This document shows positions 23,424 through 24,860 of a stretch of 59,207 nucleotides of DNA, one piece after another. The stretch's first letter is position 1; every line of letters begins with the position of its first letter. The notes beneath the pieces are model-generated. The model was not told where the DNA came from. It searched no databases and saw only the letters and a program-made list of their open reading frames with translations. The translations under genes and the position numbers were made by a program. Origin of the DNA: Escherichia phage ECO111 5-P. The stretch lies in sequence record OR844767; one strand, written 5' to 3'.

Positions 23424-23627
23424 CTATTTCCAGCCGCATAGCCGTTCGCCGATTTCATCGTGGGTGGCGATCTGCCGTGCGGTTTCATCTGTCAGCACGT
23501 CTTCCTCGCCGATGTAGATGGCGCGCGCGACAGAACAGAAAGACGGCGCAGGGTTAATCCTTTCGACGCATCCACTTACGGCGAAGCAGATCGTTAGCGC
23601 CACCATCAGGGAGTTTATTGATTTCAT
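23424..23627 (-). CDS. o-spanin (outer-membrane lipoprotein, Rz1-like)
   Basis: 67 aa; ATG 23627 with GAGGTG RBS; lipobox-like FAVSGC; Pro-containing; overlaps the 3' end of the i-spanin gene in another frame. Confidence 0.55.
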   Translation of the reverse strand: MKSINSLMVALTICFAVSGCVERINPAPSFCSVARAIYIGEEDVLTDETARQIATHDEIGERLCGWK

Positions 23628-23808
23628 TATGCACCTCGGCCACTTGTTTATCCGCGTTTGCCTGTTCCCGCAACGTGTCGTAGTTCTGGTTATTAATCTG
23701 ATCCTGTTTGCCCTTCGCGCGTCCTGCCCGCCAGACGCCGAAGAGGGCTACAACGAAAACGAGCGCCGCAAGGACGCCCGTCTTGATCCGGGCGAATAGC
23801 CCTGTCAT
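23554..23808 (-). CDS. i-spanin (Rz-like)
   Basis: ATG 23808 overlaps the endolysin stop (ATGA); N-terminal transmembrane segment GVLAALVFVVALFGV followed by a charged coiled-coil-like region. Confidence 0.55.
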   Translation of the reverse strand: MTGLFARIKTGVLAALVFVVALFGVWRAGRAKGKQDQINNQNYDTLREQANADKQVAEVHNEINKLPDGGANDLLRRKWMRRKD

Positions 23809-24518
23809 GCAGCCGCCCCGGCCCGATGCTTCCGGTACGCGACCCATCCCATGTACAGGCCAATCGCGATTGTGGCCGCGCCGAATGCGATGCGTACCCA
23901 ATCACCGGAAGAAATATCGCCGTGGGCGCTGTCCATCGCAGCCTTGACGGGCTGAACCATGTCCACCAGTTGAGCCGCACCGAGTCCGGCCACGCTCGTC
24001 GCGGCCACGGTGGTACGGTTAACAGGCTTGGCCGCCTTAACGATGCCCGCCCGGCGCAGACCTTCCTCGATCACTTCGTCCGAGTACCACGTATTCGCGT
24101 TGCTGTACGGCGTCAGGCCGAACGCTTCCGGGTTCCCGTTTTCGTGGCGGATGATGCCTTCCACCAGACCACGCATGGTGTCGTAGTCGTGGAGGTTCAG
24201 CGTTTCGCTGTTCGGGTCAACTGCCAGAACGGCGGCAACCTGTTTAGCGTAGGCCGATACGTTGTTCTCAACGGCGGGTGCCCACCGCTCGATAACTTCT
24301 CGCACCGAGTCGATTTTGCTACCGTCATTCGCTTTGCGCTTGTCGTAGTAGGTGGTCAGAGTGACGGCAATGGCGCGGATGCCGGATGCCGGGTCTTTGA
24401 ACTGTGCGAAGCGGCTGTCCGTCGCTTCACTGCGCGGGATCAGCCCTTGCCACGGCGACCCCCACTCGATGTTGCCCGGGTTGTTATTGCGAATCCCGCG
24501 CGGCTTCTGTTTAGCCAT
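23805..24518 (-). CDS. endolysin (peptidoglycan hydrolase) with C-terminal transmembrane anchor
   Basis: 237 aa; ATG 24516-24518; N-terminal GIRNNNPGNIE motif seen in phage lysins; C-terminal hydrophobic segment WVRIAFGAATIAIGLYMGWVAY; sits between holin-like and spanin genes. Confidence 0.55.
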   Translation of the reverse strand: MAKQKPRGIRNNNPGNIEWGSPWQGLIPRSEATDSRFAQFKDPASGIRAIAVTLTTYYDKRKANDGSKIDSVREVIERWAPAVENNVSAYAKQVAAVLAVDPNSETLNLHDYDTMRGLVEGIIRHENGNPEAFGLTPYSNANTWYSDEVIEEGLRRAGIVKAAKPVNRTTVAATSVAGLGAAQLVDMVQPVKAAMDSAHGDISSGDWVRIAFGAATIAIGLYMGWVAYRKHRAGAAA

Positions 24519-24521
24519 CGG

Positions 24522-24860
24522 TTATTTCCTCATCATTTGGGAAGATAGGGTATCCACGCTTTGTTTCAGGTCGCGCATGTCGGCGCGAAGGTCTGAACGA
24601 AGGGCGGAGTTTTGCGAGACGGTTTCGGCCCGGAGAACCGTGAACGCCGCGTCAGTGGAGTCCTGACGTTTCTCGACGTTGGTAAGCCGGGTGTCCGTCT
24701 GCGTGTTCTGGTTTGATAGGTCGGCGAAGCGGTTGTTGACGTACAGTACCGCCGCCACCAGCATCGAAGCCATCGTCAGAATCGTGGGGAGATTGACAGA
24801 CAAGTCTAACTTGATGCCGCCGGAGTTATCCCCCGGCCGTTCCCGTTCCATTTCGCTCAT
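24522..24860 (-). CDS. holin-like single-TMD membrane protein (putative)
   Basis: ATG 24860 with GAGGAAG RBS; one transmembrane segment LPTILTMASMLVAAVLYV; immediately upstream of the endolysin. Confidence 0.4.
   Translation of the reverse strand: MSEMERERPGDNSGGIKLDLSVNLPTILTMASMLVAAVLYVNNRFADLSNQNTQTDTRLTNVEKRQDSTDAAFTVLRAETVSQNSALRSDLRADMRDLKQSVDTLSSQMMRK

Follow-up and report, generated by a model that had tools for sequence, protein, structure and literature searches.

Positions 23424-24860 of sequence record OR844767 (Escherichia phage ECO111 5-P), a stretch of 59,207 nucleotides referred to below as the window, carry four genes, all on the minus strand and in the same orientation. Taken as a whole, the region is very probably best explained as a Chi-like lysis cassette composed of a 112-amino-acid membrane protein, an endolysin of the M4Lys/Enc34 type, and an overlapped spanin pair. 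Sequence comparison identifies the 237-amino-acid endolysin as a protein of this type, in which a PHA02564 glycosidase domain is followed by a C-terminal membrane module. Judged by its conservation, the C-terminal segment of ~75 residues is a module in its own right, not a generic anchor, and profile comparisons indicate that it is portable between enzymes, being common to two unrelated families in Gamma- and Alphaproteobacteria. The cassette bears on a problem of phage lysis, namely how a muralytic domain that lacks an N-terminal signal and carries a membrane segment at its C-terminus reaches the cell wall. The features of the cassette are as follows.

24522-24860, minus strand: putative holin, 112 amino acids, single-pass membrane protein (open reading frame, ribosome-binding site, hydropathy, PHROG match)
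23805-24518, minus strand: endolysin, 237 amino acids, starting with MAKQKPRGIRNNNPGNIE; stop codon at 23805-23807
24039-24518, minus strand: endolysin catalytic domain (7Q47 match, AlphaFold2 model, invariant residues)
23808-24038, minus strand: endolysin C-terminal membrane module, residues 161-237 (hydropathy, conservation, charge pattern in 117 homologs)
23955-24011, minus strand: H1, weakly hydrophobic, Ala/Gly/Thr-rich, 53% G/A/S/T, invariant Q183
23835-23900, minus strand: H2, beginning with WVR, near-invariant G213
23808-23834, minus strand: basic tail RKHRAGAAA, directly after H2
23554-23808, minus strand: i-spanin, 84 amino acids (N-terminal transmembrane domain, phrog_1026)
23424-23627, minus strand: o-spanin lipoprotein, 67 amino acids (lipobox, phrog_1275)

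This arrangement is the standard four-gene lysis module of Chi-like Salmonella phages. The 2.4-kb region around the cassette is 98-99.5% identical at the DNA level to dozens of Salmonella Chi-like phages, the full cassette recurs at 93-99.8% DNA identity in ~100 Chi-like phage records, and the DNA identity to the BSPM4 phage cassette is 97.8%. The four genes are not chance open reading frames since all of them match PHROG families (4/4; E 6e-58 to 3e-23), their DNA is conserved, and a C-terminal helix with a basic tail is found in all of the top 120 endolysin homologs. An earlier note, made from the letters of this DNA, had already called the region a lysis cassette; the four co-oriented genes, the PHROG matches, the annotation of phage Siskin and the identity to BSPM4 all bear this out. 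The window itself comprises the complete, circularly permuted genome of a flagellotropic siphovirus of the Chi-like group (Chivirus, Casjensviridae). A single copy of the cohesive-end sequence of Chi and Siskin, GGTGCGCAGAGC, is present in it (6521-6532, minus strand), which argues that it represents the whole genome, cut elsewhere and oppositely oriented with respect to the packaged ends.

The endolysin and its C-terminal membrane module

Residues 5-162 of the endolysin correspond to the crystallized catalytic domain of its Enc34 counterpart (PDB 7Q47; phmmer E 1.5e-74). The AlphaFold2 (AF2) model—with pLDDT >90 for residues 1-160—superposes on 7q47_B with a Foldseek TM score of 0.96 and a root mean square deviation of 1.4 Å. 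The catalytic residues E126, Y90, and W79 correspond to Glu131, Tyr95, and Trp79 of the Enc34 enzyme and are invariant in 74 aligned homologs. Compared with M4Lys, the endolysin of BSPM4, 235 of the 237 residues are identical; the two differences, S30N and T106M, are conservative and both lie in the catalytic domain, and the C-terminal 131 residues are fully identical. Owing to this near-identity to the BSPM4 proteins, the published BSPM4 experiments are directly applicable to the cassette of the window. Truncated M4Lys has peptidoglycan-degrading activity, predominantly that of an N-acetylglucosaminidase (Bai, Lee & Ryu 2020, PMC7143992). Expression of the full-length protein suffices to lyse E. 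coli in 20-60 min, and azide does not block this lysis. Lysis is lost when the C-terminal helix, or no more than the last 13 residues, is removed; the enzyme deprived of its helix is soluble and harmless, and the helix expressed alone is bacteriostatic (PMC7143992). Thus, an N-terminal catalytic domain, a muralytic activity and a C-terminal membrane anchor, each of which the earlier note had proposed, agree with the structural match, with the known peptidoglycan hydrolysis by M4Lys and with the published need for the C-terminus in lysis, respectively.

The C-terminal-anchor feature of these endolysins is already published (Siskin 2019, M4Lys 2020, Enc34 2022). The first description of the architecture appeared with phage Siskin (O'Leary et al., PMC6498227), for which a holin with an N-terminal transmembrane domain (TMD) in N-out/C-in orientation and an endolysin with two C-terminal TMDs in N-in/C-in orientation were proposed as potentially new classes. 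For Enc34 (Cernooka et al. 2022, PMC8943055), the structure of the endolysin was solved, its muralytic activity was established and the full-length protein alone was found to be toxic; the gene resides in a four-gene cassette with overlapped spanins, and no other endolysin candidate was found in the Enc34 genome. The catalytic domain occurs in 776 phage records, and in 198 of them the match extends over at least 80% of the full-length endolysin; among those listed are Proteus phages (Lavrentievavirus), Aeromonas phages, and an SSU5/pHCM2-like 110-kb phage-plasmid. A large protein database yielded 1,480 homologs of the endolysin. The architecture is therefore widespread as well as published, and its description as uncommon in the earlier note overstated its rarity. 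The same catalytic domain is also met in other settings. Gp23 of Pseudomonas phage MP42 (L088, 1792-2208) and related D3112-like transposable siphophages have a 138-amino-acid stand-alone endolysin of 42-45% identity that is devoid of the membrane module, and elsewhere the domain is fused into large virion or ejection proteins, exemplified by PDB 9VVP Gp29 and K1F gp16-like proteins. Stand-alone, module-bearing and virion-fused occurrences show that a single enzyme domain is used in soluble, membrane-anchored, and virion-borne forms.

The endolysin has two hydrophobic segments at its C-terminus, H1 (residues 170-188, KD19 1.33) and H2 (residues 207-228, KD19 1.57), which are arranged in the order basic linker, H1, acidic loop, H2, and basic tail. 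Hydropathy analysis revealed no hydrophobic segment or signal before residue 170, the N-terminus (MAKQKPRGIRNNNPGN) being hydrophilic. The single C-terminal hydrophobic helix of the earlier note corresponds to H2; the weaker H1 had been missed. In Chi-like phages, H2 is marginally hydrophobic, with 47% G/A/S/T. Among the best 120 of the 1,480 homologs (at least 51% identity), all 120 possess a C-terminal hydrophobic helix located 7-11 residues from the end, and in all 120 the tail contains 2-3 K/R and no acidic residue. Within the module Q183 of H1 and A194, S204, and G205 of the loop are invariant, and A173, G180, and G213 are conserved to at least 90%. The distribution of charges, averaged across 117 endolysin homologs, is as follows.

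N-flank: mean K/R 4.9, mean D/E 0.7
H1: mean K/R 0, mean D/E ~1
Loop: mean K/R 1.0, mean D/E 2.5
H2: mean K/R 0.8, mean D/E 0
Tail: mean K/R 2.7, mean D/E 0.1

This pattern fits the positive-inside signature of a predicted N-in/C-in hairpin with a short acidic periplasmic loop. Membership of the module in a class II holin or pinholin-like family was considered and rejected, no sequence similarity to holin families being found in Pfam or PHROGs. The view that the module is functional rather than a generic anchor is supported by its invariant residues and by the occurrence of the same module on unrelated GH24 lysozymes.

The latter emerged when a profile of the module alone was searched against 1.84 billion representatives, of which just 43 proteins matched. 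The module is characterized by an [ST]SGxWxR motif, a hydrophobic helix, and a basic tail of the form RKx[KR]. Beyond enzymes of the PHA02564 type, the profile detected P0153, in which the module accompanies a GH24 lysozyme domain (PF00959, E 9e-29), and, tentatively, P0159, a 120-amino-acid fragment combining the module with an M15-peptidase remnant that falls below the Pfam threshold. Five short proteins (P0139, P0151, P0152, P0154, and P0156) consist of the module only, either as true stand-alone genes or as fragments. The full-length form of such a GH24 enzyme is the endolysin of Brucella phage BiPBO1, whose C-terminus is homologous to the Chi module (hhalign probability 97.7%, E 2e-12). 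Motif [ST]SG, helix, and tail RKx[KR] are all retained in 119/119 related lysozymes, found mostly in prophages of Brucella, Ochrobactrum, Agrobacterium, and Shinella. Module-bearing enzymes of the PHA02564 type belong to gammaproteobacterial phages and phage-plasmids, and those of the GH24 type to BiPBO1 and at least 119 clusters of Rhizobiales prophages. Another GH24 lysozyme, LysAP of Acidovorax phage AP1, has a C-terminal TMD that is needed for lysis (AP1 2022, PMC8879335); its C-terminus aligns to the Chi module with an hhalign probability of 80% and is probably homologous to it. A further protein recovered with the profile, P0147 (568 amino acids, secreted-looking), contains seven tandem repeats of ~75 residues that match profile positions 23-46 seven times (QL..V.P.V..A..S; E 1.5e-9); these probably represent an unrelated amphipathic-helix repeat.

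The upstream membrane protein, its counterparts and the spanins

The gene preceding the endolysin starts with ATG and has a GAGGA Shine-Dalgarno sequence 8 nt upstream. In its 112-amino-acid product, a short acidic N-terminus is followed by the conserved motif KxDLxxNxPTI, which borders the TMD, by a single hydrophobic segment (residues ~21-40, KD19 1.76), and by a charged helical C-terminal region of ~70 residues. The protein is identical (112/112) to BSPM4 ORF_37, annotated as 'lysis protein B', and matches phrog_7686 (E 6e-58), whose label 'Rz-like spanin' is probably a mislabel. Public annotations of this locus contain several errors: RefSeq and PHROG both call the 112-amino-acid protein an 'Rz-like spanin', some records list it as 'putative endolysin 2' and the endolysin as 'structural/virion protein', and in BSPM4 and other records the i-spanin is missing, an open reading frame on the opposite strand having been called in its place. 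The family is narrow (8 clusters); in its alignment D19, N23, P25, T26, R88, and D94 are invariant. None of its 12 members matches a holin family in Pfam or NCBIfam. The dual-start motif MSEM (M1, M4) is not conserved, the second Met being absent in P0123, P0124, P0127, and the Proteus and metagenomic homologs. In 12/12 members, K/R and D/E are balanced on both flanks of the TMD, so the positive-inside rule gives no topology for this protein.

When expressed alone, ORF_37 has a minimal effect and does not stop growth; co-expressed with truncated M4Lys it causes no lysis, and with the full-length enzyme lysis is slightly delayed (PMC7143992). It has therefore been shown in the literature that, in E. 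coli expression, the 112-amino-acid protein is not required for lysis and does not behave like a classical holin. The wording of the earlier note, according to which this protein—correctly described as having one TMD and a long charged C-terminal region—was only tentatively a holin, was well chosen in view of the lack of holin activity of the identical ORF_37 and of any holin family match. The protein may act as a timing regulator, as a partner of the endolysin or as a non-canonical holin. Homology to known lysis proteins was considered and rejected in three cases. A profile of 12 Chi-type upstream proteins gave an hhalign probability of 4.5% against the releasin gp25 of phage Mu, the likeness being architectural alone; DUF2730 (PF10805) was matched by 1/12 family members at E 0.072, compared with 2.5e-13 for gp25 itself; and HolAP of phage AP1, a member of holin family PF16082, is unrelated to the Chi protein (0.3%).

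The architecture of the upstream protein recurs in related loci as proteins of 95-140 amino acids that combine one TMD with an extended charged helical domain, their sequences being far less conserved. The TMD lies at the N-terminus in Chi, Proteus, several metagenomic loci, BiPBO1 gp35, and Agrobacterium, and at the C-terminus in SSU5-like elements and in L038, L039, and L046; the partner gene is located either before the endolysin or after the spanins. A protein of this type was found near 15/19 dereplicated loci bearing the module versus 8/29 loci with an endolysin homolog lacking it (Fisher p ~0.001), in a screen that is a crude heuristic with a relaxed Pro/Gly cut-off, lets some i-spanins slip through and draws on loci that are phylogenetically related and not independent. 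In most cases the module is thus accompanied by a single-pass coiled-coil membrane protein. Against the Chi-type profile, BiPBO1 gp35 scores 82%; the Agrobacterium Type-A partner was rejected as a homolog at 17.6%, which is not significant. As gp35 alone of the partners tested reaches 82%, homology among the partners is suggestive at best. HolAP, whose gene lies upstream of that of LysAP, is non-toxic, speeds lysis, and interacts with LysAP in a two-hybrid assay (PMC8879335). In Aeromonas AVP3-like phages, no gene lies upstream of the endolysin. In SSU5-like phage-plasmids and metagenomic phages, the layout of the upstream protein is reversed, a soluble helical domain at the N-terminus being followed by a C-terminal TMD (L004, 1143-1478; L038, 2646-2933; L039, 2632-2925, the last matching PF19622/DUF6127 with E 4e-22). 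The presence of a reversed-layout protein in DUF6127, a family with unassigned function, suggests that this family may be lysis-related.

The two genes downstream of the endolysin are identified by their sequence hallmarks, all of which are present, as a two-component spanin of overlapped architecture. The i-spanin combines an N-terminal TMD (residues 8-26, KD19 2.19) with a charged helical domain that is predicted to be periplasmic and a conserved C-terminal LRRKWMRRKD; it matches phrog_1026 (E 3e-23) and differs from its BSPM4 counterpart in 4/84 residues. The o-spanin features the lipobox AVSG-C20 with Val, not Asp, at +2, as well as two further conserved cysteines, C31 and C64; it matches phrog_1275 (E 4e-24) and is identical to that of BSPM4 (67/67). 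Almost every related locus has a short i-spanin and an overlapping o-spanin behind the endolysin, and the o-spanin pattern FC..A.PIY...D..T..TA.QI..HN..G..LC.W is conserved there. The ATG of the i-spanin overlaps the TGA of the endolysin as ATGA, in agreement with the earlier note. The note had further spoken of overlapped spanins in its title and of a nested o-spanin in its text. The former is correct, as the o-spanin gene overlaps the 3′ end of the i-spanin gene by 74 nt in another frame (23554-23627); the latter is not, as it extends 130 nt past that end.

Possible routes of the enzyme to the murein

According to the mechanism favoured here, which is held tentatively as plausible rather than probable, the endolysin would fold in the cytoplasm and remain attached to the cytoplasmic side of the inner membrane through its C-terminal module, which would insert Sec-independently as an N-in/C-in hairpin similar to M13 procoat. 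Upon late accumulation, the H2 helices would damage or permeabilise the membrane, either alone or together with the 112-amino-acid partner, and the attached catalytic domain would then gain access to the murein. The module would act as a built-in holin-like or co-holin device, the 112-amino-acid protein would tune the timing and not form the primary hole, and the spanin pair would finally disrupt the outer membrane. M13 procoat has the same hairpin layout and inserts without Sec. Sec-independent insertion of a hairpin would reconcile azide-insensitive lysis with a cytoplasmic catalytic domain, and a cytoplasmic location of this domain is consistent with the soluble and active truncated enzyme and with the lack of an N-terminal signal.

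A number of observations weigh against this proposal. H1 is weak, its KD19 value being comparable to the 1.09 of the signal-anchor-release (SAR) domain of Mu gp22, and it carries the invariant Gln together with a conserved acidic residue; among several predictors, just one classified it as a TMD (PMC7143992). R155 and R156 of the basic 'N-flank' lie in the folded catalytic domain. In the AF2 model, pLDDT is <50 for residues 167-192 and a single long helix spans residues 207-236; with such values for H1 and the loop, the model speaks neither for nor against a hairpin. Residues 161-237, compared with Pfam and PHROGs, matched their own endolysin PHROG and no holin family. A tethered enzyme would still require a lesion large enough for a domain of ~18 kDa to pass; moreover, all lysis data derive from overexpression in E. 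coli and not from infection. The M4Lys authors predicted an N-out topology (PMC7143992). Finally, the published data conflict with respect to Sec: lysis by M4Lys is azide-insensitive (PMC7143992), whereas LysAP is reported to be Sec-dependent and has been named a 'C-terminal SAR endolysin' (PMC8879335).

The main alternative, which the M4Lys and AP1 authors favour, is possible but doubtful. In it, the endolysin would be SAR-like with an N-out/C-in topology: the catalytic domain would be exported to the periplasm, kept inactive or restrained at the outer face of the inner membrane by H2 alone, and freed or activated upon depolarisation by the 112-amino-acid protein acting as a pinholin, with H1 and the loop forming a periplasmic tether of ~47 residues. 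This is in line with a basic tail after H2 in all homologs, with the marginal hydrophobicity of H2, whose content of G/A/S/T resembles that of SAR domains, and with the weakness of H1, which does not allow it to be called a TMD with confidence. That the overexpressed endolysin lyses cells unaided is likewise reminiscent of SAR endolysins, and for LysAP, with its aligning C-terminus, membrane localisation and cell rounding were reported in addition to Sec-dependence, and the same model was proposed (PMC8879335). Such a topology is, however, difficult to reach for a protein without N-terminal signal, whose domain of ~160 residues is completed and free to fold while its one strongly hydrophobic segment has yet to emerge from the ribosome. 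No mechanism is known for exporting an N-terminal domain via a C-terminal signal (PMC8943055), azide did not block lysis by M4Lys, and once truncated the enzyme is a soluble cytoplasmic protein that retains its activity. The basic linker before H1 and the acidic loop between H1 and H2 have charges opposite to those that a fully periplasmic segment would need, and the 112-amino-acid protein, unlike pinholins, is non-toxic.

Other explanations assign the upstream protein a different part. Should it be a non-canonical ('class IV') holin that opens large holes at a set time, lysis would be of the classical type, the module would serve to concentrate the enzyme, and lysis by the endolysin alone would be an overexpression artefact. 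The canonical order holin-endolysin-spanins, the small size of the protein with its one TMD and charged C-terminal domain, and the holin call by the CPT annotators, who proposed a new class (PMC6498227), all agree with this idea, as does the caution voiced by the Enc34 authors that holin-independent lysis is maybe a side effect of strong promoters (PMC8943055). In AP1, furthermore, a holin-family protein (PF16082) precedes a probably homologous endolysin and accelerates lysis. This reading is nevertheless weakened by the behaviour of the identical ORF_37, which is non-toxic, does not lead to lysis with the truncated endolysin and slows it with the full-length enzyme, and by the lack of a holin family match; the family is also narrow, and in related cassettes it is replaced by unrelated proteins or absent upstream, whereas the endolysin module is conserved with invariant residues. 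Classical holin lysis is therefore regarded as distinctly improbable. An analogue of Mu releasin gp25 or an antiholin, in the form of a membrane-tethered and mostly cytoplasmic helical protein acting on the membrane segment or basic tail of the endolysin to govern its release or activation and making no holes, is unlikely as well. It would account for the gp25-like architecture (an N-terminal TMD and a charged helical domain of ~70 residues), for the N-out/C-in topology predicted by CPT (PMC6498227), and for a protein that is non-toxic alone and shifts lysis timing when co-expressed (PMC7143992). The recurrence of partners of either TMD orientation near module-bearing endolysins, the alignment of BiPBO1 gp35, and the HolAP-LysAP interaction point in the same direction. 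On the other hand, homology to gp25 or DUF2730 is lacking, the balanced flank charges give no topology, the Agrobacterium partner does not align significantly, and the partner association stems from a crude heuristic applied to related loci; in addition, the 112-amino-acid protein delayed lysis in E. coli, whereas a releasin promotes it. The idea that the 237-amino-acid protein is a virion-associated muralytic enzyme for entry, not a lysis endolysin, can hardly be correct. Its domain is common in virion proteins (T7-like gp16 homologs, PM2 P5, tape-measure, and ejection proteins), and several GenBank records carry a structural or virion label. Yet the protein is short, stands alone, and bears a membrane module, its gene lies between those of a lysis membrane protein and the spanins and is translationally coupled to the i-spanin, and its expression causes lysis (PMC7143992), with no competing endolysin candidate in Enc34 (PMC8943055).

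According to a broader proposal, the module would represent an ancient portable 'self-delivery' device grafted onto at least two unrelated muralytic enzymes, making the endolysin its own holin or co-holin; Chi-, SSU5-, and BiPBO1-like phages would lyse their hosts without a canonical holin, and the neighbouring single-TMD/coiled-coil protein would be a releasin- or antiholin-like timing partner and not a hole-former. This generalization is considered rather unlikely. The comparative analysis adds to the published work the invariant residues of the module, its presence on two unrelated enzyme families, its hairpin-like charge pattern, and the recurrent single-pass coiled-coil partner. If the module were a self-contained device for export or permeabilisation, a third delivery route for endolysins would exist alongside holin holes and SAR domains, and programmable lysis would gain a compact component; a paper on genetic timer circuits engineered in E. 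coli already cites M4Lys.

Genomic surroundings and comparison with known systems

One further feature lies just 5′ of the cassette, between a 709-amino-acid tail-region gene and the first lysis gene.

24882-24902, minus strand: terminator-like hairpin and U6 run; 8-bp stem UUAGCGGG/CCCGCUAA, 5-nt loop

The predicted fold of this hairpin has an energy of -11.8 kcal/mol with a z-score of just -1.35, its U6 run leads directly into the ribosome-binding site of the 112-amino-acid gene, and the equivalent hairpin is labelled as a terminator in the annotation of phage Siskin. A scan of 23200-25200 for sigma-70-like promoters found none. Given a hairpin just 5′ of the first lysis gene and no such promoter, the cassette is probably transcribed by (partial) read-through of the hairpin from the late structural/tail operon. 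The 709-amino-acid gene directly upstream (24923-27052, minus strand) belongs to phrog_7226, which has no assigned function, and is labelled 'tail protein' in RefSeq; the C-terminal half of its product is built of many repeats of ~30 residues of the form ...YPD...VP.S...V.QVL.H.... In Proteus phage P2-71, a shorter homolog of this protein precedes the cassette. At the other end, the stop codon of a nucleoside 2-deoxyribosyltransferase-like gene (22962-23423, plus strand) abuts that of the o-spanin (23421-23426) with 0 intergenic bases, and no terminator separates these convergent units (22962-23423, plus strand; 23424-23627, minus strand).

Three other small membrane proteins are encoded in the window (9028-9300, minus strand; 10646-10846, minus strand; 19177-19371, plus strand) and belong to PHROGs 8635, 2385, and 9067, whose functions are unassigned. 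They were considered as alternative holin candidates and set aside, being distant from the cassette and members of PHROGs without assigned function; superinfection exclusion or extra lysis control are possible roles. The cassette is also found at 97-100% identity in GU169904.1 (Staphylococcus phage SA1), OR848973.1 (Listeria phage LM 4-14-1), and OR849991.1, which are almost certainly contaminated, chimeric or mislabelled records.

Among characterized systems, M4Lys/BSPM4 represents the same cassette, the upstream protein and the o-spanin being 100% identical; the BSPM4 record differs in that the i-spanin is unannotated. The Siskin cassette, published as a prediction, is 98% identical at the DNA level. 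Enc34 ORF39 shares the catalytic fold and residues, the C-terminal two-helix region, and the four-gene cassette; it differs in its sequence, which is ~70-80% identical, in a 5-residue insertion after the RWAP motif, and in its Hafnia host. The endolysins of AP1 and BiPBO1 resemble that of Chi in their C-terminal hydrophobic helix and basic tail, whereas their catalytic domain is the unrelated GH24 lysozyme (PF00959). BiPBO1 has, like Chi, overlapped spanins and a single-TMD/coiled-coil protein of Type A, which is, unlike in Chi, encoded downstream of the spanins; in AP1, the upstream protein belongs to a class-II-like holin family (PF16082) and is unrelated to the 112-amino-acid protein. The SAR endolysins (P1 Lyz, phage 21 R, and Mu gp22) are comparable in being membrane-tethered, in having a weakly hydrophobic Gly/Ala-rich segment, and in causing holin-free lysis on overexpression. 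Their SAR domain is N-terminal and serves as a Sec signal, whereas the segments of the Chi endolysin are C-terminal and its N-terminus is hydrophilic; its export logic can therefore not equal that of SAR endolysins. Mu releasin gp25 is non-lethal, acts with a membrane-tethered endolysin, and has an architecture like that of the 112-amino-acid protein; in contrast to the latter, its gene lies downstream of the endolysin, and sequence or profile similarity between the two is absent. The spanins follow the overlapped plan of P2 LysB/LysC—a type II inner-membrane subunit and an outer-membrane lipoprotein encoded in different frames—with an i-spanin that differs from the LysB type in being unusually short (84 amino acids) and in giving no significant match to the LysB model TIGR03495.

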